A DNA stretch of 32,000 nt from Actinomycetota bacterium (lineage in GTDB: Bacteria > Actinomycetota > Actinomycetes > Actinomycetales > Micrococcaceae), in contig JBNJKW010000001.1 in the NCBI GenBank assembly GCA_051751385.1, positions 851,272-883,271 on the forward strand, given 5' to 3'. The notes under the pieces were generated by a model. It had not been told where the DNA came from. It ran no database searches and saw only the letters and a program-made list of their open reading frames with translations. The translations under genes and the position numbers were made by a program. Shown here in pieces: positions 4,726 to 29,578 of this stretch. The stretch's first letter is position 1. Each line of letters starts with the position of its first letter.

Positions 4726-5820
4726 ATGCGGTTAGAGTGGCAGGAAATCGTGAAACGTCACCTCCTAATACAGGCGGCAGGTAGCCGGCGCACTATCTTG
4801 GGCATGGCCTCGGTGATTGCGTTTCTGATGGTCACCGGGTGGGGCATGTTCTTCGCCGTCGTATTACCCGGGCAGTACGAACTGGCAGACCGGGCGCCTT
4901 TCGGCCTCGGACTGGCCTTTACGGCGTTCATCCTGGGGGCGCGCCACGCGTTTGACGCCGACCATATCGCGGCGGTGGACAACACAACACGCAAGCTGGT
5001 GGGGGAGGGCAGTCGGCCGGTCTCCGTAGGGTTCTGGTTCGCTTTGGGGCATTCGACCGTCGTGATCGTTGCTGTTACGCTGCTGGCCGCCGGGCTGAAT
5101 ATGTTGGCCGACCAAATTTCCGACGGCGATTCGTTGCTCGCTTCCATAACCGGAGTTTGGGGTGTCATCGTCTCCGGACTGTTCCTGCTACTGATCGGTT
5201 CACTGAACCTGTATTCGCTCATCGGGATCGCCCATGTATTCCGCCAGCTCAGGATTGGCGAATACAACGAAGCTGAAATCGAGGACCTGCTGCAAAACCG
5301 CGGCCTCCTTAACCGGATTTTGGCACCGCTGGCCCGACAGATCGACCGGCCTTGGAAGATGTATCCCATTGGTGTGTTGTTCGGGCTGGGCTTCGATACG
5401 GCAACGACGATTGGGTTGTTTGTGATCGGCGGCAGCGCCGCCCTGACCGCACCCTGGTATGTGGTTCTCGTCCTGCCGGTCCTGTTCACCGCCGGCATGA
5501 CATTGTTCGACACCCTCGATGGCATCTTCATGCACCGGGCCTACCAGTGGGCGTACGCGCGCCCGGTGCGGAAGGTGTACTACAACCTCATGGTCACGGG
5601 CACGTCCGTCATGGTGGCTTTCCTCGTCGGCGGAGTAGGACTGTTGGGACTGCTGGCCGAGAGAATGCAGGTAAATAGCGGTCCTGTTGCCTGGGTCGCT
5701 TCCGTGAATCTGGAAAACTTCGGCTTCCTGATCTGTGGGCTGTTCGCTGCAACCTGGCTGGCCGCGGTCGCGTACTGGAAACTGGGCAATGTAGAGGCGC
5801 GCTATTCGCTGCCGGACTAA
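4726..5820 (+). CDS. hoxN: NiCoT-family nickel/cobalt permease (HoxN/HupN/NixA type)
   Basis: NiCoT signature in TM2, RHAFDADHIAAVDNTTRK (H-x4-D-H), and the second conserved GLGFDTAT segment. Polytopic membrane protein, 364 aa. Sits directly upstream of hypA/hypB. Confidence 0.9.
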   Translation: MRLEWQEIVKRHLLIQAAGSRRTILGMASVIAFLMVTGWGMFFAVVLPGQYELADRAPFGLGLAFTAFILGARHAFDADHIAAVDNTTRKLVGEGSRPVSVGFWFALGHSTVVIVAVTLLAAGLNMLADQISDGDSLLASITGVWGVIVSGLFLLLIGSLNLYSLIGIAHVFRQLRIGEYNEAEIEDLLQNRGLLNRILAPLARQIDRPWKMYPIGVLFGLGFDTATTIGLFVIGGSAALTAPWYVVLVLPVLFTAGMTLFDTLDGIFMHRAYQWAYARPVRKVYYNLMVTGTSVMVAFLVGGVGLLGLLAERMQVNSGPVAWVASVNLENFGFLICGLFAATWLAAVAYWKLGNVEARYSLPD

Positions 5821-7157: not shown

Positions 7158-8216
7158 ATGCCTACCGAAACATCATTGCAGGCCGAAGAAGCTCTCATCC
7201 ACGTGCTGTGGATCAACGCAGGGCTCAGCTGCGACGGAGATTCAGTCGCGCTGACGGCGGCCACCCAGCCCAGCGTCGAGGAGATCGCGCTCGGCGCGCT
7301 GCCCGGTTTGCCCAGGATCGCGATGCACTGGCCGCTGATCGACTTTCAGTGCGGGCCCCAGGAAGGGGCCGACGACTTCCTCGAGTGGTTCCGCAAGGCG
7401 GACCGCGACGAACTGGAGCCGTTCGTCCTGGTGGTCGAGGGCTCCATCCCGAACGAGCAGCTCCATGACCCCGGCGGCTACTGGTGCGGCTTCGGCAATG
7501 ATTTGGAGACCGGACAGCCCATCACCACCAGCGAATGGCTGGACCGGCTTGCACCGAAAGCCACCGCGATCATCGCGGCCGGTACCTGCGCCACTTACGG
7601 CGGCATCCATGCGATGGCCGGCAATCCGACCGGTGCCATGGGGGTGCCGGATTATCTGGGGTACGACTGGAAATCCAAAGCAGGCATACCGATCGTCTGC
7701 GTCCCGGGTTGTCCCATCCAACCGGACAACCTCTCGGAAACCATCACGTATCTGCTCTACCAAGCCACGGGACAGGCACCGCCGATTCCGCTGGACGAGG
7801 CGCTGCGCCCCACCTGGCTATTCGGCAAGACAGTCCATGAAGGCTGCGACCGCGCCGGTTACTACGAGCAGGGTGATTTCGCGACCGAATACGGGTCGCC
7901 GAAGTGCATCGTCAAGCTCGGCTGCTGGGGCCCCGTGGTCAAGTGCAATGTCCCCAAGCGCGGATGGATGAACGGTCTCGGCGGCTGCCCCAATGTCGGC
8001 GGCATCTGCATCGGATGCACCATGCCGGGATTCCCGGACAAGTTCATGCCTTTCATGGACGAGCCGCCCGGCGGCAAACTTTCAACCAATGCCGTCCGCC
8101 CCTACGGTGCGGCGATCAAGGCGTTGCGCGGCATCACGGCCAACACGCTGGACAAGGAACCCAAGTGGCGTCGGCCCGGACGTGAACTCCTGACCGGTGC
8201 CCAACGCACCTGGTAA
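7158..8216 (+). CDS. hhyS: [NiFe]-hydrogenase small subunit, Tat-less, group 1h/5 type
   Basis: SD GAAGGAGG precedes ATG 7158. Fe-S ligand patterns are present: LSCDGDS, GTCATYGG, CPIQPDN, CIVKLGCWGPVVKCNVP, CPNVGGICIGCTMPGFPD. There is no RRxF twin-arginine leader at the N-terminus (MPTETSLQAEEALIHVLW). Confidence 0.9.
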   Translation: MPTETSLQAEEALIHVLWINAGLSCDGDSVALTAATQPSVEEIALGALPGLPRIAMHWPLIDFQCGPQEGADDFLEWFRKADRDELEPFVLVVEGSIPNEQLHDPGGYWCGFGNDLETGQPITTSEWLDRLAPKATAIIAAGTCATYGGIHAMAGNPTGAMGVPDYLGYDWKSKAGIPIVCVPGCPIQPDNLSETITYLLYQATGQAPPIPLDEALRPTWLFGKTVHEGCDRAGYYEQGDFATEYGSPKCIVKLGCWGPVVKCNVPKRGWMNGLGGCPNVGGICIGCTMPGFPDKFMPFMDEPPGGKLSTNAVRPYGAAIKALRGITANTLDKEPKWRRPGRELLTGAQRTW

Positions 8217-8249: not shown

Positions 8250-10040
8250 ATGACCTCCACAATTCCAACGCCTTCCCAGAGCAGCACAGGCAGCAACCTA
8301 GTGGAGATGGCGTGGGATCCCATCACCCGGATCGTCGGCAGCCTCGGCATCTACACCAAGATCGATTTCGAGAACAACCAGGTTGTGGAGTGCCGCAGCA
8401 CGTCCTCGATCTTCCGCGGGTACTCCTTGTTCATGAAGGGCAAGGACCCTCGCGACGCCCACTTCATCACCAGCCGGATCTGCGGCATCTGCGGCGACAA
8501 CCATGCCACCTGCTCCTGTTATGCCCAGAACATGGCCTACGGCGTGAAACCCCCGCATCTGGGCGAGTGGATTGTGAACCTCGGCGAAGCGGCCGAGTAC
8601 ATGTTCGACCACAACATCTTCCAAGAGAACCTCGTCGGCGTGGACTACTGCGAAAAGATGGTCTCCGAAACCAACCCCGGCGTACTGGCGAAGGCGGAGA
8701 ACACCCGCGCCCCGCACGAAGCCGACCACGGCTACCGCACCATCGCGGACATCATGCGCTCGTTGAACCCGTTCACCGGCGAGTTCTACCGGGAGGCCCT
8801 GCAGGTCAGCCGGCTCACGCGTGAGATGTTCTGCCTGATGGAAGGACGCCACGTCCACCCGTCAACGCTGTACCCGGGCGGCGTCGGCACGGTGGCGACC
8901 ATCCAGCTCATGACCGACTACATCACCCGGCTGATGCGCTACGTCGAGTTCATGAAGAAGGTTGTGCCGATGCATGACGACCTCTTCGACTTTTTCTACG
9001 AGGCACTGCCAGGCTACGAACAGGTGGGCCTGCGGCGTACCCTGCTCGGCTGCTGGGGTGCCTTCCAGGATCCGGAGTTCTGCAATTTCGAGTACAAGGA
9101 CATGACGGACTGGGGCCGGAAGATGTTCGTGACCCCCGGCGTCGTGGTTGATGGAAAACTGGTGACCACTGACCTGGTGCGGATCAACCTCGGAATCCGA
9201 ATCATGCTCGGTTCCTCGTACTACGAGGACTGGGAGGACCAGGAAATGTTCGTGACGCAGGATCCGCTGGGCAATCCGGTGGACCGCCGGCATCCGTGGA
9301 ACCAGCACACCAACCCGAAGCCGCAGAAGCGCGACCTGGCGGAGAAGTACAGCTGGGTCATGTCCCCGCGCTGGTTCGACGGCACGGACAACCTCGCCCT
9401 GGACACCGGCGGCGGCCCGTTGGCCCGGCTCTGGTCGACGGCGCTGGCAGGGATGGTCGACATCGGCTACATCAAGGCCACCGGCCACAGCGTGCAGATC
9501 AACCTGCCCAAGACCGCGTTGAAGGGGCCGGTCACTTTCGAATGGCACACTCCGCAATGGAGCAACACCCTGGAGCGCAACCGGGCCCGTACGTACTTCC
9601 AGGCCTACGCCGCGGCGGCCGCACTGCATTTCGCCGAGCAGGCGCTCGAAGAGATACGCGCCGGAAGGACCAAGACCTGGGAAACCTTCGAGGTCCCCGA
9701 CGAGGCATTCAGCTGCGGCTTCACCGAGGCCGTGCGCGGCGTGCTTTCGCACCACATGGTGATCCGCGATGGCAAGATCGCCAACTACCACCCGTACCCG
9801 CCGACTCCTTGGAACGCGAGCCCCACAGATTCCCAGGGCATCTCCGGGCCGTACGAGGACGCGGTCCAGGGGCAACCCATCTTCGAGGAGAACGACCGCG
9901 AGCATTTCAAGGGGATCGACATCATGCGCACGGTGCGTAGCTTCGACCCCTGCCTGCCCTGCGGCGTCCACATGTACTTGGGCAAAGGGCAGACCCTGGA
10001 CAAACTGCACTCCCCAACCCAGACGATGACCGGCGAGTGA
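8250..10040 (+). CDS. hhyL: [NiFe]-hydrogenase large subunit, group 1h/5 (high-affinity, oxygen-insensitive type)
   Basis: L1 motif TSRICGICGDNH and L2 motif SFDPCLPCGVH. The GDNH variant is, from memory, characteristic of group 5/1h. 596 aa. All four Ni-Fe ligands are Cys codons. Confidence 0.93.
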   Translation: MTSTIPTPSQSSTGSNLVEMAWDPITRIVGSLGIYTKIDFENNQVVECRSTSSIFRGYSLFMKGKDPRDAHFITSRICGICGDNHATCSCYAQNMAYGVKPPHLGEWIVNLGEAAEYMFDHNIFQENLVGVDYCEKMVSETNPGVLAKAENTRAPHEADHGYRTIADIMRSLNPFTGEFYREALQVSRLTREMFCLMEGRHVHPSTLYPGGVGTVATIQLMTDYITRLMRYVEFMKKVVPMHDDLFDFFYEALPGYEQVGLRRTLLGCWGAFQDPEFCNFEYKDMTDWGRKMFVTPGVVVDGKLVTTDLVRINLGIRIMLGSSYYEDWEDQEMFVTQDPLGNPVDRRHPWNQHTNPKPQKRDLAEKYSWVMSPRWFDGTDNLALDTGGGPLARLWSTALAGMVDIGYIKATGHSVQINLPKTALKGPVTFEWHTPQWSNTLERNRARTYFQAYAAAAALHFAEQALEEIRAGRTKTWETFEVPDEAFSCGFTEAVRGVLSHHMVIRDGKIANYHPYPPTPWNASPTDSQGISGPYEDAVQGQPIFEENDREHFKGIDIMRTVRSFDPCLPCGVHMYLGKGQTLDKLHSPTQTMTGE

Positions 10041-10046
10041 GTTGCC

Positions 10047-10982
10047 ATGCCAGCCGGGGAGCAGCCACGCCAGGCCGGTGAGCGCATCGGCACCCTTTTG
10101 GACGCGCTCGGGGCTGGCGGCGCCGTCGCCCGCGGACGCGCGGAGGACCTGGTCCGCGAGGTGGCTGACCTGTACGGAGCGGGATTGGAACGGCTGCTGG
10201 AAATCCTCAAGGACCGCGGAGTGCTCGATCCTGCCACAATGCAGGCGCTGACCGCGGATGAGCTGGTGTCCGCCGTGCTGCTGATTCACGGGCTGCACCC
10301 GCAGGATCTTCAGACCCGGGTTGCTGCCGCGCTGGACAGCGTCCGCCCATACCTTGGCTCACACGGCGGCGACGTGGAACTGCTGGAAATCAACGACGAC
10401 GGCGTGGTGCGGCTGCGCCTGTTGGGCACCTGCCAGGGGTGCCCGTCGTCGTCCGTTACCCTCAAGTACGCGGTGGAGGACGCGATCGAAGCAGCTGCCC
10501 CGGAAGTGGCGGCGATCGAGGTCGTCGAGGCCGAAAGAGCCGCCGCCGCGCCGGCCGTGATCCCCGTGGACGCACTGCTGGTCCGGCTGAACCGGGAACC
10601 CGATGGCTCCCGGGACCAGCCAGCAGGCTCCTGGGAGCCGCTGCCCCAGCTCGCCGAGCTGGAACCCGGGGAGGTTGCGGGCTTCCTGGTCGGCGGCGGT
10701 TATTCCCTTCTGGCTTGCCGGACCGGGCAGGACGTGTATGCCTACCGCGATTACTGCCCGCGCTGCACCCGCTCGCTGGAAGGGGCGACGCTGCAGCGGG
10801 CACTGGCGGCACCGGTCGGCGGCGGCTTGTTGCGCTGCCCGTCTTGCCGCAGCCACTTCGACGTGCGGCAGGCCGGGGTGTGTCTCGAGGACAAGTCGGT
10901 GCACTTGGATCCGTTGCCGGTGCTGGTCCGCGACGGCGTGATGTCCGTGGCGGTCCCGATGTCAGCCGGGCATGGAGGCTGA
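10047..10982 (+). CDS. hhyE: Putative Fe-S protein: NifU C-terminal-like domain fused to a 4-Cys Rieske-like/zinc-ribbon domain (HhyE-like)
   Basis: Starts 6 nt after the hhyL stop. Central Nfu-like segment VRPYLGSHGGDVELLEINDDGVVRLRLLGTCQGCPSS. C-terminal beta-rich domain carries CPRC...CPSC where Rieske proteins have Cys/His ligands. The symbol is by analogy to the mycobacterial hhy locus and is not verified. Confidence 0.65.
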   Translation: MPAGEQPRQAGERIGTLLDALGAGGAVARGRAEDLVREVADLYGAGLERLLEILKDRGVLDPATMQALTADELVSAVLLIHGLHPQDLQTRVAAALDSVRPYLGSHGGDVELLEINDDGVVRLRLLGTCQGCPSSSVTLKYAVEDAIEAAAPEVAAIEVVEAERAAAAPAVIPVDALLVRLNREPDGSRDQPAGSWEPLPQLAELEPGEVAGFLVGGGYSLLACRTGQDVYAYRDYCPRCTRSLEGATLQRALAAPVGGGLLRCPSCRSHFDVRQAGVCLEDKSVHLDPLPVLVRDGVMSVAVPMSAGHGG

Positions 10983-10983
10983 G

Positions 10984-11679
10984 ATGGAACGGCAGACCGG
11001 GACGGACACGGAGCGAGCCGGAACCATACCGGTCGCGCTGCTGCGCCGGATCGCAGCCACCAAACCCGCCCCCGCGGGCGAGCGCTGCGAGATGTGCGGC
11101 GAGCCCATCACGGAAGAACACCAGCACGTCGTCGATGTGGAAAGCCGCGGCATGCTGTGCACCTGCCGGCCGTGCTACCTCCTCTTCATCGATGCCGACG
11201 CCCGGCTCCGCTACCGCGCCGTCCCCGACCGCTACCTCTCCTTCCCCGATTTCGACCTCGGCCCTGGCCAGTGGGAGGAGCTCGAAATCCCGGTGGGCCT
11301 TGCCTTCTTCTTCTACAGTTCCAAAATGGAGCGCATGGTCGCCTTCTATCCGGGCCCCGCTGGAGCCACCGAATCCGAACTTTCGCTGGAGGCGTGGGGC
11401 GCGGTGTTGGCGCGCAATCCGAGCCTGTCGGTCGCCGCCGCTGATACGGAGGCGCTGCTGATCCGTGGTCCGGGACCCGAGCGGGCACAGGCGGACTGCT
11501 ATTTGGTCCCGGTGGACGCCTGCTATGAACTTGTGGGCCAGCTGCGCCGTGTGTGGCGCGGGTTCGACGGCGGACAGCAGTCCCGCGAGCAACTCAGTGA
11601 GTTCTTCAACCGTGTCAGGAGCCGGTGCCGGCCGGTGCGCGAGGACCGCGGCGGCGCCGGGCAGGGAGGCTCGCCGTGA
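10984..11679 (+). CDS. Conserved hypothetical protein, Cys/His-cluster N-terminus (hydrogenase-associated)
   Basis: ATG 10984 is preceded by GGAGG (10975-10979); ATG 10972 is the alternative. Motif CEMCGEPITEEHQHVVDVESRGMLCTCRPC gives 5 Cys and 2 His in 30 residues. High third-position GC. The stop overlaps the next start. Confidence 0.6.
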   Translation: MERQTGTDTERAGTIPVALLRRIAATKPAPAGERCEMCGEPITEEHQHVVDVESRGMLCTCRPCYLLFIDADARLRYRAVPDRYLSFPDFDLGPGQWEELEIPVGLAFFFYSSKMERMVAFYPGPAGATESELSLEAWGAVLARNPSLSVAAADTEALLIRGPGPERAQADCYLVPVDACYELVGQLRRVWRGFDGGQQSREQLSEFFNRVRSRCRPVREDRGGAGQGGSP

Positions 11680-12332
11680 CCGAGTTGTCCTTCACGGTCC
11701 TCGATATCCAGCCTGAGGCCTACGCGGCGGCTCCCCAGCTGACTGCCCGGCTGCGCGTCACCGAGTCCAGCGGCGCCGTCGTCCACGCGATCGCGCTGCG
11801 CTGCCAGGTCCGCATACTGCCGCAGCGGCGCGGCTATGGCCCGGGTGAGGAACCGGGGCTGCTGGATCTCTTCGGTGAGCGCGGCCGCTGGCCCTCTACC
11901 CTGAAGTCCTTCCTCTGGCTGCAGTGCAGTGCCCTGGTCCAGGGGTTCACCGGCAGCACCGAGGTGGATCTGCCGCTTCCCTGTACCTTCGATTTCGAGG
12001 TCGCGGCGGCCAAGTACCTGCACGCGCTGCAGGAGGGCACGATCCCGTTGGAACTGCTATTCTCCGGCACCGTCTTCACCAGAGGCCAGACCGGGTTCAC
12101 AGTGGAACAGGTGCCGTGGGACCTTGAGGCTTCCTATCAGCTGCCGGTGGAGGCGTGGCGCCGGCTCATGGACCTGCACTTCCCCAACACCGGCTGGCTC
12201 CGGCTGGACCGCGAGGTGCTCGCAGCGTTGGCCCATTTCAAGGCGGTCCGGGGGCTTACCTCTTGGGAGGCAACCATGGAGGCGCTGCTAGCCGGTGCCG
12301 CCGCGAACGCTGTGGGTGAGCCGCCGCGATGA
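11676..12332 (+). CDS. Conserved hypothetical protein (hydrogenase-associated)
   Basis: GTG 11676 overlaps the upstream TGA (GTGA) and is preceded by GGGAGG. 218 aa with no motif I can name. Coding-like composition. Ends in an ATGA overlap with the next gene. Confidence 0.55.
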   Translation: MTELSFTVLDIQPEAYAAAPQLTARLRVTESSGAVVHAIALRCQVRILPQRRGYGPGEEPGLLDLFGERGRWPSTLKSFLWLQCSALVQGFTGSTEVDLPLPCTFDFEVAAAKYLHALQEGTIPLELLFSGTVFTRGQTGFTVEQVPWDLEASYQLPVEAWRRLMDLHFPNTGWLRLDREVLAALAHFKAVRGLTSWEATMEALLAGAAANAVGEPPR

Positions 12333-13777
12333 ACATGGGACTGAGCCTGGCCCGCGCCGTCGCCGATGCTGTCCTCTACGAGGGGTACCTGCTCTACCCG
12401 TACCGCGCGTCGTCCCGGAAGAACCAGGCTCGCTGGCAGTTCGGTATCCTCGGCCCGCCCGGCGCCGCGGCTGCGGGGCTCGGCGAGGAACCGTACATGT
12501 CCGCAGACTGCCTGCTCCAGCCTGGCCGGAACGCATCGCTGGAGGTTCACCTGCGCTTCCTCCAGCTGCAGACCCGGACCGTGGAGGAAAAGTGCGACGA
12601 CGGCGCGTTCAGGGCCGTGGGAGAGCTCACCGTGGGCGCCACCCGATGGCTGACCTGGGACGAAGCCGTTGAGCAGGAAATCACCCTGGGACCGTTTGCG
12701 CTGGCTGACCTGGCCGGCCCGCAGGGGGACGGGCTGGCACTGCCGGTCGACGTGCCGGCCGGTCAGGACACGGAGTTGCTCACCGACCGCGTCGGGCAGG
12801 TTGCCGGGCGACTGGTGCGCCGCCGTCGACGGCTCCGCGGAGAGGTCAGGCTGAACCCGACGCCACATGCCGACGGGGTCATGCGGCTGGGTGTCACCGC
12901 GGAGAACCTCGGTCCCGCTGAGGACACGCCTCCAGCCGCAAACAAACAGGACGCCATCGGCTTGTCCTTCATCGGAACCCACGCTCTGCTGACCGTGCAG
13001 GACGGAGATTTCCTCTCCCTGCTCGAGCCGCCGGAAGCGGCAGGAGCCGCCGCCCGGTCCTGCACACAGCACCGCTGCTGGCCGGTCCTCGCCGGACCCG
13101 AAGGCCAGACCGACGTGTTGCTCATCTCGCCCATCATCCTCTACGACCATCCCGCCGTCGCCCCGGAAAGCTCGGTGGAGCTGTACGACTCGACGGAGAT
13201 CGACGAGATCCTCACACTGCGGGTGCTGACCCTGACGGAAGAGGAGAAGGCGGAGGCCCGGGCCACCGATCCGCGTGCGGCAGCGGTGATCGACCGCTGC
13301 GCCGCCATGTCGCCCGAGGAACTGCAGCAGTTGCACGGCGTCCTGCGCGACCCCCACGCCCCGGCCTTCCCTACGCTCACCGAAGAGCCGGCAGCTGGAT
13401 CCGGCGGCAACAGCGGATCCCAGAGCCTTCCGTGGTGGGATCCCGCGGCGGACGCCAGCGTCCATCCTGACGAGGACGCCGTGCTGATCGGAAGCGTTCC
13501 GGTGGCCCGCGGCAGTCGGGTGCGGGTGAAACCTAGCCGGCGAGCAGATGCCCAGGATCTGTTCTTCGCCGGCCAATCGGCAAGGGTCACCAGCGTCCAT
13601 TTCGACGTCGACGGCAGCACGCACATCGGACTGGTCTTCGAACAAGACCCCGCGGCCGACCTGCACGAGGGCTACGGCCGATCCTTCTACTACGCGCCGG
13701 ACGAACTGGAGCCTCTTGATCCTGCCCCGTCCGGCGGACAGTCCGAAACCCAACAGGGAAGGGAAAACCAATCATGA
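12329..13777 (+). CDS. Conserved hypothetical protein, 482 aa (hydrogenase-associated)
   Basis: ATGA overlap at both ends (12329-12332 and 13774-13777). No catalytic motif recognised. The only long sense-frame ORF here; the 544-aa antisense ORF is a shadow. Confidence 0.6.
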   Translation: MNMGLSLARAVADAVLYEGYLLYPYRASSRKNQARWQFGILGPPGAAAAGLGEEPYMSADCLLQPGRNASLEVHLRFLQLQTRTVEEKCDDGAFRAVGELTVGATRWLTWDEAVEQEITLGPFALADLAGPQGDGLALPVDVPAGQDTELLTDRVGQVAGRLVRRRRRLRGEVRLNPTPHADGVMRLGVTAENLGPAEDTPPAANKQDAIGLSFIGTHALLTVQDGDFLSLLEPPEAAGAAARSCTQHRCWPVLAGPEGQTDVLLISPIILYDHPAVAPESSVELYDSTEIDEILTLRVLTLTEEEKAEARATDPRAAAVIDRCAAMSPEELQQLHGVLRDPHAPAFPTLTEEPAAGSGGNSGSQSLPWWDPAADASVHPDEDAVLIGSVPVARGSRVRVKPSRRADAQDLFFAGQSARVTSVHFDVDGSTHIGLVFEQDPAADLHEGYGRSFYYAPDELEPLDPAPSGGQSETQQGRENQS

Positions 13778-13893
13778 GAGCAGTAGGCATGGTGGCCACG
13801 GGCCTGCTTTCCGCCGTCGCGCTCGGCCTCGTCTACGTCGGGCTGCGGTCACTCCCGGACATCCGGCGCTACCTGAAGCTGAGCCAGATGTGA
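13774..13893 (+). CDS. 39-aa single-pass membrane peptide (not in supplied ORF track)
   Basis: Hand translation gives MRAVGMVATGLLSAVALGLVYVGLRSLPDIRRYLKLSQM. The ATG overlaps the upstream TGA (ATGA), with GGAAGGG 8-10 nt upstream. Its TGA overlaps the GTG of the protease gene (GTGA). One hydrophobic helix plus a basic tail. Confidence 0.5.
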   Translation: MRAVGMVATGLLSAVALGLVYVGLRSLPDIRRYLKLSQM

Positions 13894-14426
13894 ACACCCG
13901 GCTCCAACCACGCGCAGCCGCCGACGGTACCGCCCCGGATTTCACAGGCCGTAGCCTGGTGGCCGGCGTCGGCAACATGTTCCTGCGCGATGACGGCTTC
14001 GGTCCGGAGGTCGCCCGGCGCCTGGCCGTGGCCGCCCCCAGGCCGGGAGTACAAGTGGTCGACTATGGGATCCGGGGGATGCATCTGGCGTACGACCTGC
14101 TGGCCGGCGTGGACGCGCTGGTCCTGGTAGATACCGTCCCTCCTGATGCGCACGATGCAGCACCGGGAAGCATCCGGATCCTGCGCGTCGGTGCCGAAGA
14201 CCTAGCGGAGGCAGGGCCGTTGGATCCACACGGCATGGATCCCGCAGCGGTGTTGGACCGGCTCCGCTCACTCGGCGGCAAACTGCCGCGAACTTACGTC
14301 GTCGGCTGCGTGCCCGCCGACATGACGGACGGCATCGGTCTCTCGCCAGCGGTCGCGGCCGCTGTCCCCAAGGCGATGGCCGCCGTCGTCGCACTCCTCG
14401 ACGAAAACGTTCCCCATCCCACCTAA
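13890..14426 (+). CDS. hupD: Hydrogenase maturation endopeptidase (HupD/HyaD/HybD family)
   Basis: LVAGVGNMFLRDDGFGPEV (GxGNxxxxDDGxG), VVDYG, LVLVD and DPHGM motifs. The track ORF from 13548 is an out-of-context extension. Start is proposed at the coupled GTG 13890; GTG 13959 is the alternative. Confidence 0.8.
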   Translation: MNTRLQPRAAADGTAPDFTGRSLVAGVGNMFLRDDGFGPEVARRLAVAAPRPGVQVVDYGIRGMHLAYDLLAGVDALVLVDTVPPDAHDAAPGSIRILRVGAEDLAEAGPLDPHGMDPAAVLDRLRSLGGKLPRTYVVGCVPADMTDGIGLSPAVAAAVPKAMAAVVALLDENVPHPT

Positions 14427-14438
14427 GGAGGTACCGCC

Positions 14439-14696
14439 ATGTGCCTAGGAATACCGGGGCGGGTCATCGAGCTCATTGAAGGTTACGGCGGCCAGCTCGC
14501 CCTCGTCGATGTTGCCGGGGCGGAGCGGAAAATCAACATCGGTCTGCTGGACGACGGCCCGCCGGAAGCCGGCAGCTGGATCCTGATCCACATGGGCTTC
14601 GCCTTGAAGCGGGTGGATGCAGAGGGTGCGGAGGAGGCGATGACCGGCCTCGAATTGATGGGGCAAGAGCGGGAATCCGGGGGCGGGTTGCCCTAG
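14439..14696 (+). CDS. hypC: Hydrogenase assembly chaperone HypC/HupF family
   Basis: N-terminal MCLGIPG with the essential Cys2. 85 aa. SD TAAGGAGG is 7 nt upstream. Confidence 0.9.
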   Translation: MCLGIPGRVIELIEGYGGQLALVDVAGAERKINIGLLDDGPPEAGSWILIHMGFALKRVDAEGAEEAMTGLELMGQERESGGGLP

Positions 14697-14743: not shown

Positions 14744-15199
14744 ATGTCCGAGGAACAACCCGAGTCCGTTGAACAGCGGGAGCAGCCCGAGACCGACCGG
14801 CTGGGCTACGACTACAACAAAGGAACCAATCCTGCGCCCGGCGGGGAAACGGATACCGGCGGCAGCGCCGTTCCCCCGTACCAGGACCGGAGCACCGAAC
14901 GTACTGAGCCGGCCAAGGGCACTGCCCGCGCCTGGGGCAGCGAGGCTCCGGCGAAAGAACCGGAGCAACCCGGGCAGGAGGAGATTCCCGCTGACGCCGA
15001 GATGGCTCCGGAAGGGGTCGGCGCGAGCATAACCCGCGGCGGCGAAGAAGTGGTCGAGCAGGATGGCAAAGAGCCAGGCCGGGAGGACACCGGGACCAAG
15101 GGGCCGTCCGAGCGTCCTACGGGCACTTCGACGGCGCGCGATTCCACCGGCGTCGACACCGATGAGGCATCGGGGGAGGCCGCTCCACAGGCACCGTAG
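14744..15199 (+). CDS. Acidic, low-complexity (Glu/Pro/Gly/Thr-rich) predicted disordered protein
   Basis: SD GAGGAGG is 6 nt upstream of the ATG. 151 aa with no hydrophobic core segments and no recognisable domain. It is the last gene of the plus-strand run. Confidence 0.45.
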   Translation: MSEEQPESVEQREQPETDRLGYDYNKGTNPAPGGETDTGGSAVPPYQDRSTERTEPAKGTARAWGSEAPAKEPEQPGQEEIPADAEMAPEGVGASITRGGEEVVEQDGKEPGREDTGTKGPSERPTGTSTARDSTGVDTDEASGEAAPQAP

Positions 15200-15216: not shown

Positions 15217-15327
15217 GGGGTAACGCTCAAGGGCTAACGCGCTCCAAGGGCGATCGTTAAGGGCTGACGTTCGAGCGCGGTCGCCGGGCTAACGGATCGC
15301 CGCGCTAACGTTCGAGCGCAATCGCCG
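15217..15327. repeat. Degenerate repeat array: 5-6 copies of GGGCTAACG-like 9-mer plus a 23-nt duplication
   Basis: 9-mers start at 15217 (GGGGTAACG), 15231 (GGGCTAACG), 15248 (GGGCGATCG, weaker), 15261 (GGGCTGACG), 15286 (GGGCTAACG) and 15302 (GCGCTAACG). CTGACGTTCGAGCGCGGTCGCCG (15264-15286) matches CTAACGTTCGAGCGCAATCGCCG (15305-15327) at 20/23, and all differences are G/A. Confidence 0.7.
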
Positions 15328-16078
15328 CGCCCCGATGCTCGACGCCCTTGTTGGCGATCTCCAGGTGCCGGGCGGTGAAGTGCTGCAGTTGCCGCAGTGC
15401 ACGCGGGGACAGGACATCACACACCCAGTCCCAATGGAGGGAGACGACATCCCCGACATTGAGCTTCTCCACGAAACCCGTTCCCGCGACGGCGAATTTC
15501 GCGGTCTCGACCACCGGGTCCCCGACGGAAAGAAACGTGCCGTTCCAGACCAGCTGGGGCGAGCTGACCACTGCCTCGTCACCGGCAAGGCCGAGGACCT
15601 GTCCCCAGCGGATCCTGCAGCGGTCGAGCACGGTGAGCGCCGTGGCGTACCGCCGCTCATCGCGCAGTAGACCCAGCCAGGGATAAATCTCGAAGACATG
15701 GAAGCTGTGGTGGGGAACGCCGCCGGCCAGGACCCCTTCCACCAAGTGCGGGAACTGCTGGCCGGTCCGAGCGCGGAAGCGGTCCTCCATGGAGTTGCCC
15801 ATGTTCCGAATCCCCACGGAATCCAGCAGGCTATTGCCCACCCAATAGGCCTCGACGACACGACGGTCCAACGGATCCGGGATACCGGTCGAGCCGGCGA
15901 TCAGCTCCAAGTACGGGTAGGCTCCGGCGAAACCCTTCGCAAGTTCGCGGAGCCCCTGATCGGTGATTCCGGTCTGTCCGTAGTGGAGCAGGGCGTCGCT
16001 GTCCAGCGGACCGCAGCTGCCCCGGGCATTGGGCGGGTAAGCATAACGGACAAACAACTGGGCGCCGTCGATGACCAT
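15305..16078 (-). CDS. Conserved hypothetical protein (I recall similar ARYAYPPN..CGP proteins as a DUF family near actinobacterial hyp genes; unverified)
   Basis: Minus-strand ORF 15305-16159. Start preferred at ATG 16078 (MVIDGAQLFVRYAYPPNARGSCGP), preceded by GGAAGGTGG. 257 aa with coding-like composition. Confidence 0.6.
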   Translation of the reverse strand: MVIDGAQLFVRYAYPPNARGSCGPLDSDALLHYGQTGITDQGLRELAKGFAGAYPYLELIAGSTGIPDPLDRRVVEAYWVGNSLLDSVGIRNMGNSMEDRFRARTGQQFPHLVEGVLAGGVPHHSFHVFEIYPWLGLLRDERRYATALTVLDRCRIRWGQVLGLAGDEAVVSSPQLVWNGTFLSVGDPVVETAKFAVAGTGFVEKLNVGDVVSLHWDWVCDVLSPRALRQLQHFTARHLEIANKGVEHRGAAIALER

Positions 16079-16239
16079 GCTGTGCCACCTTCCGCTAATG
16101 CGTGCTTCGACGGTAGCACCGGGATTGACACACCGGCAAGGAACATGCACTCCGATCAACTGCCGCCCCTTTTGCGGCCGCCCCCGGGAAAAGTGCTCTG
16201 CGATTCTCGAACCTCACTGAGGCGCGCGCCGCGCTTCCC

Positions 16240-16275: not shown

Positions 16276-16399
16276 TGGGTCTCGTCGAGTCGTTGACAGG
16301 CCTCAGCCCGAGGGCGATGCTGTTTACACTGAAGCGCCGCGGCCTCAGCGTCCCTGATGCCGCAACGGCGCAATGCGACAGCATCCGGGGAGCGAGCCC

Positions 16400-17533
16400 A
16401 TGACCGCTGAAATCAACCGCCGGTCACTCCTGCAGGTCATCGGGCTGGGCGGCGGCGTCGCCTTTTTAGCCGGATGCGGCGCCGGCCGCACCGCCCCGGC
16501 ACCGACCGGAGGCAGCACATCTGGAGGCATCAGCTTCCGTGACCAGCAGGGCCGGACCATCACCTTCGACCGACCGGTCACCCGTGTGGTGACCATTCCC
16601 ATGCCGGCCGCCTCGCTGCTGGTGGCGGTGGACGGCGGCGCTGACCATCTGGCCGCCATGCACAACGCATCCTGGGTGGCGATGCGCGACGGCATCCTCG
16701 GTACCATCTTTCCCCGGGCCTTGGAGCTTCCACACGAGATCGCCACGCAGGATTTCACGCCCAACGTCGAGAGCGTACGGGCGCTGAACCCCGACGTCGT
16801 TATCCAATGGAGCGATGCTCAACTGGTAGCACCCTTGGAAAACGCCGGGCTGAAAGTGATCGGCCTGGTCAACAACGGCGAGCAGGAGGACGTGGACGCG
16901 TGGATCGCCATGTTTTCCGCCATGCTCGGGAAGCCGGAACGGGCCACAGAGATCAAGGACCACAGCGATCGGGAACTCGCCGAGGTCAAGGAACTAGCGG
17001 CCGGACGCAACGGCCCCGGGCCGAGCATCCTGTACTTCAACCGATTTTCGGGCGGGCTCAAAGCGGCGGCCGCCAAGACCTACAACGACTTCTATATCAA
17101 GCTGATCGGCGGCAGCAATCCCGCCACCGGCGAGGACGGGCTGCCTGGTACCGGCATGGTGGGGCTGGACGTGGAACAAGTCCTGAGCTGGGATCCGGAG
17201 GTCATCCTGCTGGGTAATTTCGACGGCGCCATGCCGCAGGACGTGTACGACGATCCGGTCTGGAAGAACGTCGCCGCGGTCCGGGACCGGCGAGTCTACA
17301 AGGTGCCGCTCGGCGGCTACCGCTGGGATCCGCCGGGCCAGGAATCGCCGCTCATGTGGCACTGGCTGAGCGACATCGCCTTCCCTCAGGATCAGTCCAG
17401 GTTGCGCGGCAAGATTGACGACTACTACCGGATGCTCTACAACTACAGGCCCACCACCGCGGACCTCGATCGGATTCTCTGGGCCGAGCAGAACGGCCAA
17501 TCCGCCAACTATCAGCAGTTCAATGCTGGATGA
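16400..17533 (+). CDS. ABC importer substrate-binding lipoprotein, siderophore/cobalamin (FecB/BtuF, TroA-like) class
   Basis: N-terminus MTAEINRRSLLQVIGLGGGVAFLAGCGAG has a twin-Arg motif plus lipobox LAGC. The body resembles periplasmic-binding-protein type 2 (PEVILLGNFDG, VYKVPLGGYRWD). Confidence 0.8.
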   Translation: MTAEINRRSLLQVIGLGGGVAFLAGCGAGRTAPAPTGGSTSGGISFRDQQGRTITFDRPVTRVVTIPMPAASLLVAVDGGADHLAAMHNASWVAMRDGILGTIFPRALELPHEIATQDFTPNVESVRALNPDVVIQWSDAQLVAPLENAGLKVIGLVNNGEQEDVDAWIAMFSAMLGKPERATEIKDHSDRELAEVKELAAGRNGPGPSILYFNRFSGGLKAAAAKTYNDFYIKLIGGSNPATGEDGLPGTGMVGLDVEQVLSWDPEVILLGNFDGAMPQDVYDDPVWKNVAAVRDRRVYKVPLGGYRWDPPGQESPLMWHWLSDIAFPQDQSRLRGKIDDYYRMLYNYRPTTADLDRILWAEQNGQSANYQQFNAG

Positions 17534-18632
17534 GGCGGCCTATCCACGGTCGAAAAAGCGGCGAAAGGCGGCTCGCCGTTCCCCTCTACGCAAGGATAGG
17601 AGTCAGCGGTCTGGTGTCTCGTCTGTTCTCGCACCGATCGCCGTCTCCGCTGGCCTGCTGACAGTCGCCGGCCTGGTGGCACTGGCGGTGGGCCGCTACA
17701 ACATCCCGCTATCGCATGTGGCGCAGATCCTCACTGCCCAGCTCTTCCCTGCTGCCCCCGAGGTCAGCGCCACGGAAGAGAGCGTCGTTGTGCTTGTGCG
17801 GCTGCCTCGGGTCCTGCTCGCCCTGCTGGTGGGTGCCGGGCTGTCGATCGGCGGGGCTGCCCTCCAGGCTATCTTCCGTAACCCGCTGGTCAGTCCCGAG
17901 ATTATTGGAGTGTCGGCCGGCGCATCCTTTGGCGGCGCCTTGGCCCTGCTGCTCGGTTTGGGTTCCCTGCTGCTCGTCGGTGGCGCGTTCGTCTTCGGAC
18001 TACTGGCCCTCGTCATGCTCTTCCTCATCACATCCGGGCGAGGCGGGACGCCCCTGCTGATGATCGTGCTTGGCGGGGTGGTCATTGGCTCCTTCTTCTC
18101 CGCCCTCGTCGCCTTCATCACCTACATCGCGGATCCGAACACCACGCTGCCGGCCATCGTCTTCTGGCTGCTCGGCAGCGTTGCGTCCGCTACTTTCGAG
18201 AAGGTGCTGGTGGCGGCCATCCCGATCCTGCTCGGCACCATCGTGCTCTTGGTGCTGCGCTGGCGAATCAATGTGCTCTCGCTGGGCGACGAAGACGCGG
18301 CCGCGCTGGGACTACGACCCGCGACCCTACGCTGGGTGGTGCTGGTGGCCGTCGCGCTGATGGTCGCAGGTGCTGTCGCCGTTAGTGGAGCGGTCAGCTG
18401 GGTGGGCCTCGTCATCCCGCACGTGGCCCGGATGTGGGTGGGGCCCGACCACCGGGTCCTGCTGCCGGTGTCGTTCCTGCTCGGCGGGACCTACATCATC
18501 GTGATCGACACCATCGCCCGGACGCTGACCGCCGGGGAGATTCCGCTCGGCGTGCTCACCGCCCTGATCGGCGCACCGGTGTTCTTCCTCCTCCTGCGCC
18601 AAAACCGGGACAGGATCTGGGACAGTGCTTGA
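17523..18632 (+). CDS. FecCD/BtuC-family ABC permease
   Basis: Multi-TM protein with typical FecCD segments (RLPRVLLALLVGAGLSIGGAALQAIFRNPLVSPEIIGVSAGAS; GEIPLGVLTALIGAPVFFLLLRQ). ATG 17523 overlaps the SBP gene end by 11 nt; the exact start is uncertain. Confidence 0.85.
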   Translation: MLDEAAYPRSKKRRKAARRSPLRKDRSQRSGVSSVLAPIAVSAGLLTVAGLVALAVGRYNIPLSHVAQILTAQLFPAAPEVSATEESVVVLVRLPRVLLALLVGAGLSIGGAALQAIFRNPLVSPEIIGVSAGASFGGALALLLGLGSLLLVGGAFVFGLLALVMLFLITSGRGGTPLLMIVLGGVVIGSFFSALVAFITYIADPNTTLPAIVFWLLGSVASATFEKVLVAAIPILLGTIVLLVLRWRINVLSLGDEDAAALGLRPATLRWVVLVAVALMVAGAVAVSGAVSWVGLVIPHVARMWVGPDHRVLLPVSFLLGGTYIIVIDTIARTLTAGEIPLGVLTALIGAPVFFLLLRQNRDRIWDSA

Positions 18633-19368
18633 GCTTGATGGCGTAGGATTCGGCTATAGCCCGGGGGAATGGACATTTCGTGGCGTCAGCTTCGAAGTAC
18701 ACGCCGGCACCGCGACGGCCGTGCTGGGCCCTAACGGAAGCGGAAAGACCACGCTGGTGCGCTGCGCTGCCGGATTGCTGTCGCCGGTGGAAGGCGCCGT
18801 CCGCCGGGACGGAAACGCCGGGTACGTGCCGCAAGCCCACGGAAGCGCTTTCGCCTACCCCGCACTGGAAATGGTGCTCATGGGGCGGGCCCGGCAGGTC
18901 CGCTTTTTCCGCTCGCCCGGACCGGCCGACCGGGCGGCGGCGCTGGAAGCGATGGACCGGATCGGCATCGCTGAACTACAGGACCGGCTGTTTCCCACCC
19001 TGAGCGGCGGCGAGCAGCAACTGGTCCTGCTCGCCCGCGCCATCGCCACAGGCTGCCCCGTCCTGGTTCTCGACGAGCCCGCTACCGGCCTGGACCTGAA
19101 GAATCAAGCCCGCATCCTGACGCTGCTGCGCGAACTGTGCTCCGACGGCATGACCGTACTGCTGAGCACGCACCACCCCGACCACGCGCTGTACCTGGCC
19201 GATCGGGTTGTCCTCATGGGCGGATCCGGGTCGACAACCGGGACGGCAGAAGAGTTGCTCACCGACGGGGAGCTTTCCTCGCTGTACGGCGTTCCGGTCA
19301 GCACGCTCCTGTACGCCGACGGAAACACGCAACGGCGCACCATCGTTGTCCACTACGGAGGACTCTGA
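18625..19368 (+). CDS. ABC transporter ATP-binding protein (FecE/BtuD-like)
   Basis: Walker A GPNGSGKTT, signature LSGGEQQ, Walker B VLVLDEP, H-loop STHHP. GTG 18625 overlaps the permease stop by 8 nt. Confidence 0.9.
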   Translation: MLELDGVGFGYSPGEWTFRGVSFEVHAGTATAVLGPNGSGKTTLVRCAAGLLSPVEGAVRRDGNAGYVPQAHGSAFAYPALEMVLMGRARQVRFFRSPGPADRAAALEAMDRIGIAELQDRLFPTLSGGEQQLVLLARAIATGCPVLVLDEPATGLDLKNQARILTLLRELCSDGMTVLLSTHHPDHALYLADRVVLMGGSGSTTGTAEELLTDGELSSLYGVPVSTLLYADGNTQRRTIVVHYGGL

Positions 19369-21607: not shown

Positions 21608-24600
21608 ATGTCGCGGTTCAGCTTTTTGGAGTGGCCCGTTGTGCGGCAGCTCCGATCGAGTGATTCACTTGGACGGGGCGAGGCCGTCACATCGCCGCGG
21701 ACCCGCGGCATCACTCCCCGGACATCCAGCGCAGACCGCGTGGTGCAAAGCGTGTGCCCCTACTGTGCGGTGGGATGCGGCCAACGCGTCTTCGTCAAGG
21801 ACGAGAAGGTCGTCCAGATCGAAGGGGACCCGGATTCGCCGATCTCCCGCGGCCGGCTCTGCCCCAAGGGATCCGCCAGCGAGCAGTTGGTCAACGCGCC
21901 GAGCAGGCAGACGCAGGTGCTGTATAGGGCACCCCATGCCAAGGACTGGCAGCACCTTGACCTGGACACCGCCGTCGATATGGTGGCCGACAGGTTCCTT
22001 GAGGCGCGCCGGAACAACTGGCAGCAAAACGATGAGCACGGCCGGCCGCTCCGGCGGACCATGGGCATCGCCGGCCTGGGTGGGGCAACCCTGGACAACG
22101 AAGAGAACTATCTGATCAAGAAGCTCTTCACCGCAGCGGGCGCCATCCAGCTCGAAAACCAAGCGCGCATTTGACACTCCGCCACGGTTCCCAGTTTGGG
22201 AACCTCGTTTGGACGCGGGGGAGCGACGCAATCGCTCCAGGACATGGCCAATGCCGACTGCATTGTTATCCAAGGTTCAAACATGGCCGAGTGCCATCCC
22301 GTCGGCTACCAGTGGGTGACGGAGGCTAAGGCGCGCGGCGCGAAGGTCATCCATGTGGATCCGCGGTTCACCCGCACCAGCGCGGTGGCCGACAGGCATG
22401 TTCCGATCCGCGCCGGCTCGGACATCGTTCTTTTGGGTGCCCTGATCAACCATGTGATCAGCAACGATCTGTGGTTCAAGGAATACGTTCTTGCCTATAC
22501 GAACGCGGCAACGCTGGTGGGCGAAGACTTCCGTGACACCGAGGACCTGGACGGGTTGTTCTCCGGGTTCGATCCGGAAACGGGCCAGTATGACCTGGCT
22601 TCCTGGGCCTATGAACGGAGATCAGAGGCAGAAGAATCGGCAGGACACGGACACGAACACGGCCACGAACACGGCGCGGATACCGCCGCCCGGGCCGCCG
22701 GAGATCAATACGGCAGCGGTGGGCCTCCCCTGGGGCGTCCTGACTTCGAGCAGGACCCAACCCTTGAGCACCCGCGGACGGTGTTCCAGATCCTGAAACG
22801 CCACTACTCGCGTTACACTCCGGAAATGGTCCGGGACGCCTGCGGCATCTCCCTTGAGGATTTCGACTACCTCGCGAGGGCAGTCACGGAGAACTCAGGC
22901 CGCGACCGGACCACCTGCTTTGCGTATGCCGTCGGCTGGACCCAGCACACGGTGGGGGCGCAGTACATCCGCACCGCGGCGATCCTGCAGCTCCTGTTGG
23001 GCAACGTGGGGCGGCCAGGCGGGGGAGTCATGGCGCTGCGCGGGCACGCCAGCATCCAAGGCTCCACCGACATCCCGACCCTGTTCAACCTGCTGCCCGG
23101 ATACCTCCCCATGCCGAAGGCCGGTATTGAGACTCTGCGCGAATACTGCGACGGCATTGCATCCCCGGAGCAGAAGGGCTACTGGGCCAATGCCGATGCC
23201 TACACCATCAGCTTGCTCAAAGCTTGGTGGGGCGACGCGGCCAACGAAGACTCGGACTGGGGCTACGGCTACCTTCCCCGAATTAACGGCCCGCACGGGA
23301 CGTACCAGACCGTGATGAGCATGCTTGATGATGAGGTGGAGGGCTACTTCGTCTTTGGCCAGAACCCCGCCATCGGGTCTGCAAACGGCCGGATGCAGCG
23401 CCTTGGCATGTCCCATTTGAAATGGCTGGTGGTGCGCGACCTGAACCTTATCGAGTCGGCGACCTGGTGGAAGGACGGTCCGGAGATCGCCTCGGGCGAG
23501 CTGCGCACCGAGGACATCGGCACGGAGGTCTTCTTCTTGCCGGCCGCTACGCATGTGGAAAAGGCCGGCTCCTTTACCCAGACCCAGCGGCTGCTGCAAT
23601 GGCGGCACCAGGCTGTCCGGCCGCCGGGTGACTGCCGAAGCGAACTGCAGTTCTTCTACGAGTTGGGCAGGCGCATCCGGGCCAAGCTGGCGGATTCGAC
23701 CGATGAACGGGACCGGCCGCTGCTGGACCTGACCTGGGACTATCCCACCGATGAACACGGCGAGCCTGACGGTGAGGCGGTGCTCGCCGAAATCAACGGC
23801 CGGCATCTCACTGGTCCCAAAGCCGGCCAGCTCCTCTCGTCGTACACCGAGATGCGCCCCGACGGCTCGACGGCGGGCGGATGCTGGATCTATACCGGCG
23901 TCTACGCGGACGGTATTAACCACGCCGCGGACCGAAAGCCCGGGCAGGAACAAGGGATCGTCGCCGCCGACTGGGGCTGGGCATGGCCGGCCAACCGGCG
24001 CATTCTCTACAACCGCGCCTCCGCGGATCCCGAGGGCAAGCCGTGGAGCGAACGCAAGAAGTACATTTGGTGGGACCAGGGGCAGAGCCGGTGGATAGGC
24101 GAGGACGTGCCCGATTTCCCCGTGGACCGCGCTCCGGGAAGCCGTCCGGATATATCCGCGGGCGGTGCCGCCGCCTTGGCGGGAGACGACCCCTTCATCA
24201 TGCAAGCCGATGGCAAGGGATGGCTGTTCGCGCCGAAGGGCATGGTGGACGGTCCGCTGCCGACCCACTATGAGCCGCAGGAGTCGCCGGTAGCCAACCC
24301 GCTCTACCGACAGCAGCAAAACCCCGCCCGACTGATCTACCCGCGCGAAGACAACCTCAGTGCGCCCAGCGCGGGCACCCGCGGCGCGGACATCTACCCG
24401 TACGTCTTCACCACGTACCGGTTGACCGAACACCACACGGCCGGCGGGATGAGCCGGTGGCTGCCGTACCTCGCGGAGCTTCAGCCGGAGATGTTCTGCG
24501 AAGTGTCCCCGGAATTGGCGGCCGAACGTGGGTTGGAACCCTACGGATGGGCAACCATCATCTCGCCCAGGGCGGCCATCGAGGCGAGGGTACTGGTCAC

Positions 24601-28113: not shown

Positions 28114-28208
28114 GGAGGCGTCCGGGTCCTGGTGGGCCCCCCGGTCTTCAAAACCGGTGAGACCGAGTACCTCGGTCTGGCGGGTTCGATTCCCGTCCGC
28201 TTCCGCCA
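28114..28208 (+). tRNA. selC: tRNA-Sec (anticodon TCA)
   Basis: Hand fold of 95 nt. Acceptor GGAGGCG pairs with CGCTTCC. 6-bp D stem GGGTCC/GGGCCC with 4-nt loop TGGT. Anticodon loop CTTCAAA (TCA at 28148-28150). Long variable arm AGACCGAG-TAC-CTCGGTCT. T arm has the TTCGATT loop. Acceptor plus T stems total 13 bp. Discriminator G and an encoded CCA are present. Confidence 0.9.
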
Positions 28209-29569: not shown

Positions 29570-29578
29570 GCTCCTGAG

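Follow-up and report, generated by a model that had tools for sequence, protein, structure and literature searches.

What do five genes packed between the large-subunit gene of a group 1h [NiFe]-hydrogenase and the gene for its maturation endopeptidase contribute to the enzyme? The question is raised by a 32,000-nucleotide (nt) stretch of high-GC DNA from a Micrococcaceae genome (contig JBNJKW010000001.1; the window), in which five open reading frames (ORFs), g1 to g5, lie on the plus strand at positions 10047-13893, between hhyL and hupD. Much of the atmospheric H2 that soils take up is consumed by group 1h hydrogenases, which are also sought as air-stable catalysts, and the module is an obvious candidate for how the enzyme (Hhy) is assembled in air and connected to the membrane and the quinone pool. 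We find that the window carries a further copy of a module that is already known and whose function is without a published account. On balance we read g1-g4 as an apparatus that serves specifically to assemble the group 1h hydrogenase and not as subunits of the working enzyme, a reading to which we give about an even chance.

The module that the original prediction picked out from the letters of the window is not a new observation: the same genes are PHG066-PHG069 of the Cupriavidus necator megaplasmid pHG1, described in the pHG1 literature as "four ORFs of unknown function". A methanotroph study of 2025 still lists four coding sequences of unknown function, the first of them NifU-like. In our literature search DUF5947 and DUF6893, the families of g2 and g5, were the subject of no paper, and DUF6084, the family of g3, had one passing mention; the Mycobacterium smegmatis locus tags appear in expression lists only. 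The remark that the remaining genes had no assigned role therefore stands, with no function published for g2-g5. The prediction was also right to place g1 with HhyE, which is required for Hhy activity and H2 oxidation in M. smegmatis (PMC6883350).

Linkage, fusions and layout of the module

We collected related loci with a g4 profile scan, taking one genome per species and the best 80 loci of 596 confirmed relatives. The sample spans Arthrobacter, Mycobacterium, Nocardia, Rhodococcus, Streptomyces, Actinoplanes, Nocardioides and Jatrophihabitans, and also holds one metagenome-assembled genome (MAG) labeled Sericytochromatia and one labeled deltaproteobacterium. Locus placement stops short of the weakest members of the g4 family (the E-value tail) and leaves aside P0248, whose contig is too short for context. 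Upstream linkage was counted only in loci with at least 4.5 kb of upstream sequence, and in all of these (63/63) hhyL, g1, g2 and g3 accompany g4, colinear and compact in 62. Downstream, hupD follows within 1 kb in 73 of 74 loci, and g1 occupies the position of HhyE in 76. Mycobacterial loci keep the identical five-gene order at 50-60% identity. More distant relatives of g4 or g2 (34-44% identity) sit in the same module on metagenome contigs, on an Acidimicrobiia-type contig, in an Acidobacteria genome, on a Methylocystis parvus plasmid and on C. necator pHG1. The co-occurrence check proposed with the original prediction thus binds the module to hhyL: all the loci examined encode a hydrogenase and keep this gene order.

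Fusions between module genes, all of them in hhySL loci, divide the module in two. A HycI protease domain is fused to the C-terminus of g4 in six separate 50%-identity cluster representatives, and g4::HycI fusions of equal length turn up again in independent assemblies, one of them an NCBI Acidimicrobiaceae MAG. A cluster of 28 members joins DUF6084 (g3) to g4 in a protein of 765 amino acids (aa), and the locus of this protein also encodes a 375-aa g1::g2 fusion. The g1::g2 fusions occur in L089 and P0525, and the second of them has a recognizable NifU domain. g1 and g2 therefore form one group and g3, g4 and HupD another, which gives testable pairings. Median identity to the window is 55-58% for g1-g4, 55% for hupD and 59% for hypC, against 85-86% for hhyS and hhyL. 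By this measure g1-g4 diverge like the maturation genes hupD and hypC, unlike the structural genes.

We assign the hydrogenase of the window to group 1h (Hhy, or actinobacterial-type) on the motifs of its subunits. HhyL carries the exact L1 (TSRICGICGDNH) and L2 (SFDPCLPCGVH) motifs quoted for this group (PMC5364354). The hhyS start, ATG 7158, is preceded by GAAGGAGG, and the encoded N-terminus (MPTETSLQ...) is without a twin-arginine motif and so without a twin-arginine translocation signal; a Pfam search found no cytochrome b domain among the operon proteins. The top PDB match of HhyL is 5AA5, HofG of C. necator (1069 bits), whose chain stops at query residue 574. HhyL continues beyond H574 with a 22-aa C-terminal extension, which is expected to be the substrate of HupD.

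The plus-strand gene order is nicO, hypA, hypB, hhyS, hhyL, g1-g5, hupD, hypC, and a promoter and terminator scan of this strand from hypA to hypC found no promoter-like or terminator-like site. The stop codon of hhyL (TGA, 10038-10040) is followed by a 6-nt spacer and the ATG of g1 at 10047, and that of g1 (TGA, 10980-10982) by a single nucleotide and ATG 10984. The latter is favored as the start of g2 over the alternative ATG 10972 because GGAGG lies at 10974-10978. The remaining junctions are 4-nt overlaps: GTGA at 11676-11679 (g2/g3), ATGA at 12329-12332 (g3/g4), ATGA at 13774-13777 (g4/g5) and GTGA at 13890-13893 (g5/hupD). Base by base, these are the junctions that the original prediction had listed. 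It had taken them to imply stoichiometric co-expression with the structural subunits, which goes too far: tight junctions point to coupled translation and say nothing on equal stoichiometry. High GC content at third codon positions, as expected of genuine genes, is shared by all five ORFs (0.81-0.82 for g1-g4), and every one of them falls in a conserved family. Among the related loci, 4-nt overlaps are found at 38/66 g1-g2, 53/78 g2-g3 and 58/78 g3-g4 junctions, and the gap from hhyL to g1 has a median of 7 nt (72 loci). By these counts, the tight packing is a conserved trait and no local accident.

The five proteins and their conserved residues

The features of the module and of the hydrogenase genes around it are collected in Table 1. 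g1 consists of an N-terminal helical region, a NifU-like domain and a four-Cys Rieske-like domain. The Nfu-type CxxC and the all-Cys CPRC and CPSC pairs ascribed to it beforehand are present, but the match to Rieske_2 falls just below the Pfam cut-off of 27 bits. Cys stands where a true Rieske center has its His ligands; the domain is without the Rieske [2Fe-2S] ligand set CxH...CxxH and is at most Rieske-like in fold. g1 also fails the NCBIfam equivalogs TIGR03341 (46.7 bits, cut-off 269) and TIGR02000 (36 bits, cut-off 273), and its PDB relatives are only free-standing NifU-like proteins, the closest being plant Nfu2 and NFU1. With a NifU-like CxxC, two C-terminal CxxC motifs and a position directly downstream of hhyL, it has the features of the HhyE clade. 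Across phyla, the invariant residues in 21 aligned sequences are only D71, H81, L83, H84, P85 and R91, all in the N-terminal part of the protein. The NifU CxxC is missing in the orthologues of C. necator, Methylocystis, L052, L065, L082, L088 and L089, and the entire Rieske-like domain is missing from those of Actinoplanes/Asanoa and of non-actinobacteria.

g2 matches DUF5947 (PF19372; threshold 25 bits) over model positions 1-176 of 177. The Cys/His pattern noted earlier in this gene is present in full, as C35xxC38, H46xH48 and C59xC61xxC64, and the distant C180 (nt 11521-11523) is invariant too. Together these residues make a 6-Cys/2-His set that is unchanged in all of 34 sequences compared, drawn from four phyla (Actinomycetota, Burkholderiales, Methylocella, Acidobacteria and Planctomycetes), and is kept in a second alignment (A5). 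The AF2 model of g2 has a predicted local distance difference test score (pLDDT) of 87 and a predicted template-modeling score of 0.78; a fold search of the PDB gave no significant match (best E 0.12).

g3 and g4 had been described as without an assignable motif. This holds for g4, which has no family model, but g3 is a DUF6084 protein (PF19562; threshold 25 bits, model positions 1-211 of 213), whose alignment (A3) shows neither Cys nor His to be conserved. Family alignments of both proteins show no conserved Cys clusters. The g4 family is large, with more than 8000 close sequences, 3877 clusters at 50% identity and no Pfam model. Its nearest members are from Arthrobacter, an identical protein is recorded in an Actinomycetota MAG, and the PHG069-type protein of C. 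necator (WP_011153991 region) is 36% identical over residues 10-463, 94% of the length (E 9e-46). The AF2 model of g4 (pLDDT 82.5) shows a large beta-sheet domain, a helical segment, a disordered linker (343-369) and a C-terminal SH3-like barrel, which superposes on PetP (2n5u and 7r0w_V) with template-modeling (TM) scores of 0.64-0.76 relative to the target. In the Acidobacteria locus (L091:9294-10629) g4 is called as two ORFs of 346 and 109 aa, split at the disordered linker, so that the SH3-like domain is a separate 109-aa ORF.

Searches of the PDB and BFVD with the g4 fold returned only herpesvirus gB noise, small SH3-like matches and a weak resemblance to DrmA. The last concerns residues 65-280 (12521-13168) and the N-terminal part of this DISARM helicase, and was seen by two independent methods (Foldseek 7s9v_A, E 2.2e-5, TM 0.22; PADLOC hidden Markov model, E 0.0015). 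We rejected g4 as DrmA on synteny; it has no helicase domain, and there are no DrmB, DrmC or methylase partners. A Phage_TAC_7 match of g4 (17.6 bits, below cut-off) was taken as noise. Profile-profile comparison found g2, g3 and g4 unrelated to one another, which led us to reject an internal duplication among them. Sequence and profile searches found no PDB relative for g2, g3, g4 or g5.

g5, described beforehand as a membrane peptide, also has a Pfam family: it matches DUF6893 (PF21833) well above the threshold of 24.6 bits, with all 32 model positions covered. It has a single transmembrane helix (residues 6-24; Kyte-Doolittle peak of 2.08 in a 19-residue window), followed by a basic tail, RSLPDIRRYLKLSQM, that should face the cytoplasm. 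From hhyS to hypC it is the only transmembrane segment. The original prediction had called it the only hydrophobic element of the operon, which is correct within these limits but overlooks the multi-pass NicO just upstream on the same strand. A hidden Markov model of the g5 peptide gave a match in 84 of 88 sources, adjoining g4 or hupD; each copy ends Met-stop, and the family motif is S-[ILV]-P-D-x-[RKQ]-R-Y-[LM]-[KR]-x-R-x-M. Micropeptides of this type can escape genome annotation: C. necator pHG1 encodes an unannotated 33-aa DUF6893 peptide, MKGFLKYLVLPALVVALLANIKDIRRYIRIRSM, between the protease gene and hypF (L086:10999-11100; NC_005241.1 about 66753-66854), absent from the gene table of the record. 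A possible function of g5 is that of a membrane tether.

In three loci a YceI-family (polyisoprenoid-binding) gene adjoins the gene for the DUF6893 peptide (L088:11044-11565, L089:12084-12596 and L091:11592-12167). These loci are Acidimicrobiia-type and Acidobacteria, with PadR-YceI fusion proteins nearby, and the window is without YceI. The neighborhood may indicate a lipid or quinone link.

Table 1. Positions in the window of the module, its domains and motifs, and the hydrogenase genes on either side
Feature	Position	Strand	Evidence or remark
nicO, multi-pass NicO nickel transporter	4726-5820	+	same strand, upstream
hhyS, group 1h [NiFe]-hydrogenase small subunit	7158-8216	+	Pfam Oxidored_q6 and NiFe_hyd_SSU_C
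hhyL, group 1h large subunit	8250-10040	+	Pfam NiFeSe_Hases
g1, HhyE-type protein, 311 aa	10047-10982	+	Pfam NifU 81 bits, Rieske_2 26.6 bits
g1 N-terminal region, motif D71...LLIH81GLH84P...R91	10134-10319	+	21-sequence alignment
g1 NifU-like domain, C129xxC132	10320-10517	+	PF01106 81 bits, residues 92-157
g1 Rieske-like domain, CPRC (237-240) and CPSC (264-267)	10629-10949	+	Pfam
g2, DUF5947, 231 aa, homologue of C. necator PHG067	10984-11679	+	Pfam 242 bits
g2 Cys/His cluster C35, C38, H46, H48, C59, C61, C64	11086-11187	+	invariant
g3, DUF6084, 218 aa	11676-12332	+	Pfam 313 bits
g4, 482 aa, homologue of C. necator PHG069	12329-13777	+	no Pfam or NCBIfam match
g4 C-terminal SH3-like beta-barrel, residues 384-462	13478-13714	+	fold match
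g5, DUF6893 micropeptide, 39 aa	13774-13893	+	Pfam 47.6 bits
hupD, hydrogenase maturation endopeptidase	13890-14426	+	Pfam HycI, TIGR00072
hypC, maturation chaperone	14439-14696	+	Pfam HupF_HypC, TIGR00074

Assembly apparatus or part of the working enzyme

Published experiments, together with the protease fusion and the divergence pattern, favor reading g1-g4 as assembly factors. In an M. smegmatis hhyE mutant the Hhy zymogram band is lost even with nitroblue tetrazolium as artificial acceptor, and the authors allow for an assembly-factor role (PMC6883350). Purified Huc consists of HucS, HucL and HucM only and reduces menaquinone analogues without HucE (PMC10017518). A 2023 review cites the HucE and HhyE work in its treatment of additional assembly and maturation proteins. 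HhyL matches 5AA5, the sole group 1h structure, in which no homologue of g1-g5 is present, and the NifU fold of g1 is that of known iron-sulfur (Fe-S) carriers.

The apparatus would act as the two sub-modules that the fusions outline, whose substrates, metal and membrane link we infer as follows. g1, with its Nfu-like fold and conserved HxxH motif, and g2, with its 6-Cys/2-His metal site, would handle a metal or Fe-S step, most likely the loading or protection of the HhyS clusters in air. g3 and g4 would work with the endopeptidase HupD at the final step, in which Ni-loaded HhyL would lose its 22-residue C-terminal tail and pair with HhyS. The single-pass g5, its conserved basic tail on the cytoplasmic side, would bring either this assembly step or the completed enzyme to the membrane. 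Should g1-g4 prove to be dedicated assembly factors, they would probably be what a foreign host needs for making Hhy-type enzymes.

Several points weigh against this reading. On native gels HhyE is reported to run together with HhyS and HhyL, as a subunit also would (PMC6883350). Adjacent overlapping genes fuse easily, so the fusions are weaker proof than fusions between distant genes. In the verrucomicrobial Methylacidiphilum, where hhyS, hhyL and hupD are adjacent, group 1h enzymes are active without hhyE (PMC5364354), and the module is therefore not universally required. g1 cannot act everywhere as a classical Fe-S carrier, since several lineages have lost its NifU CxxC. Finally, g1-g5 show no homology to known hydrogenase chaperones: Pfam and NCBIfam searches up to E 10 gave no match to HypA-F, HupK/HoxV, HyaE/HoxO, HyaF/HoxQ/HupH, HybE/HoxT or HoxR, while the same searches recover the neighboring hypA, hypB, hupD and hypC.

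A more specific version takes g1-g5 jointly as a two-part maturation machine specific to air-stable high-affinity hydrogenases, and we put it forward tentatively, as possible and rather doubtful. It would have a new metal center in g2, and the strictly conserved ...RYxxxxxM tail of g5 would dock on the SH3-like domain or the acidic patches of g4, bringing the last assembly step and the finished enzyme to the membrane. This version counts on two predicted folds without a solved relative, those of g2 and of the N-terminal region of g4, and, from sequence, on g3, whose family is without a PDB sequence relative. If true, docking of g5 on g4 would explain how Hhy is membrane-associated without transmembrane subunits.

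The original prediction had offered electron relay, membrane tethering, and O2 protection or assembly as roles for the module. Assembly fits the evidence best, and electron relay has lost ground. As a unit of the working enzyme, the module would use redox Fe-S or Fe centers in g1 and g2 to take electrons from the distal cluster of HhyS, with g3 and g4 as scaffold and g5 anchoring the complex at the membrane for menaquinone reduction. Such a unit would suit loci that have no cytochrome b subunit and an enzyme that is membrane-associated without predicted transmembrane regions (PMC6883350), and it would fit the lone transmembrane segment of g5, the Cys motifs of g1 (four-Cys and CxxC), the invariant Cys/His set of g2 and the YceI genes beside DUF6893. 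PHG067 had moreover been proposed as an electron acceptor, as the proposal is cited in PMC6883350, and the co-migration of HhyE with HhySL points the same way. We nonetheless consider this relay unlikely. It is weakened because the artificial acceptor does not rescue the hhyE mutant, Huc works without HucE, 5AA5 is without g1-g5 homologues and the CxxC of g1 is not universal. The cluster ligands and the Rieske-like domain of g1 are absent in C. necator and other lineages, g3 and g4 are without conserved Cys clusters, the fusion partner of g4 is a protease and no redox protein, and g1-g4 diverge as fast as hupD and hypC.

We hold it improbable that the module serves O2 protection or repair of the assembled enzyme, for instance by re-inserting clusters or reducing oxidized states at the Fe-S clusters and the active site. 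Repair would suit enzymes that work in air and a module transcribed with the structural genes, and Nfu-type proteins are known to be important for Fe-S proteins exposed to oxidative stress. The present data do not separate repair from first assembly, but fusion to HupD, which acts once on the precursor, points to biogenesis, and Methylacidiphilum enzymes tolerate O2 without hhyE (PMC5364354). That g1-g5 are unrelated passengers or a regulatory or defense cassette, as the weak DrmA matches of g4 could suggest, is close to refuted by synteny: the loci examined all encode a hydrogenase and share one gene order. In addition, the TM-score to DrmA is only 0.22, and no helicase, methylase or nuclease partner is present.

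Surroundings of the module and known systems

Further genes of the window surround the hydrogenase operon. A DUF6390 protein (293 bits, no PDB relative) is encoded on the minus strand at 15305-16159, convergent with the operon; in 65 of 80 related loci a homologue is found no farther than 10 kb from the module, and the gene may be a further conserved Hhy accessory gene. Directly after hypC, at 14744-15199 (+), lies an ORF for an acidic, low-complexity product of 151 aa. It is preceded by a good Shine-Dalgarno sequence and has no family match, and by tblastn it was recovered from four close Arthrobacter loci (L001-L004) only. hypD, hypE and hypF adjoin hypC in most other group 1h loci but are absent from the window and from the inspected Arthrobacter loci L001, L002 and L006; in this genome they must be located elsewhere. 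For the small subunit on C. necator pHG1 (L086:4208-5263) and in Methylocystis parvus (L087:4305-5384), RefSeq gives the name "hydrogenase expression protein HypE". This looks like a misannotation, because the gene is directly upstream of the large subunit and hhyS of the window gives tblastn matches (77-95% identity) at the equivalent position in related loci.

Downstream of the hydrogenase cluster, 16373-19368 encodes an ABC importer of the FecCD and periplasmic-binding-protein type 2 kind (binding protein, permease and ATPase), which could supply metal or a siderophore. The window also encodes a formate-dehydrogenase-type molybdoenzyme consisting of a catalytic subunit, a 4Fe-4S subunit and an NrfD-like membrane subunit. 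The catalytic subunit (21608-24925) is selenocysteine-dependent and split by an in-frame TGA at 22172-22174 (...ENQARI*HSATVP...). Beside it lies a complete selenocysteine machinery with selD, tRNA-Sec (anticodon TCA), selA and selB; the coordinates of the whole region are 21608-24925, 24926-27003, 27059-28072 (-), 28114-28208 and 28247-31381.

In O2-tolerant membrane-bound hydrogenases, extra chaperones encoded with the structural genes allow subunit and Fe-S assembly in air. HoxL, HoxO, HoxQ, HoxR, HoxT and HoxV of C. necator and HyaE and HyaF of Escherichia coli thus serve us as a working analogy to the module, with no sequence relationship; rubredoxin has been given as an example of an accessory protein of such enzymes (PMC6883350). 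The hhaA, hhaB and hhaC of Methylacidiphilum are names of hyp genes (PMC5364354). With Nfu and NfuA carriers, g1 shares the NifU C-terminal domain with its CxxC, but it scores far below the equivalog cut-offs, has extra N- and C-terminal domains, and its CxxC is not family-wide. PetP, the SH3-like peripheral subunit of the cyanobacterial cytochrome b6f complex, docks on the cytoplasmic face of a membrane complex; the g4 barrel resembles it in fold only (15-18% identity, E about 0.01-0.02), and we claim no family membership.

HucE of the group 2a hydrogenase, a NifU-like paralogue whose gene follows those of the structural subunits, is required for activity and carries a true Rieske signature, CxH...CxxC, where g1 of the window has Cys (PMC6883350). 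HhyE of M. smegmatis (MSMEG_2718) comes closer: like g1, it is encoded after hhyL and has a NifU-like CxxC and two C-terminal CxxC motifs. MSMEG_2717 is reported as a PHG067 homologue (PMC6883350). The orthology of the M. smegmatis Hhy genes to those of the window is drawn through other mycobacteria, and HhyE is the only one that has been genetically tested there.

The locus of the hydrogenase AH (HofKG) on pHG1 of C. necator H16 differs from the window in details of its parts. PHG066, of 192 aa, is without the CxxC and the whole Rieske-like domain of g1, the DUF6893 peptide follows the protease gene, where in the window it precedes hupD, and hypFCDE come directly after, where the window is without hypDEF. 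The plan of the locus is the same: genes for the small subunit, the large subunit, a NifU-family protein, DUF5947, DUF6084, a hypothetical protein of about 476 aa and the protease follow one another in the order of the window, with junctions that overlap in the same way.

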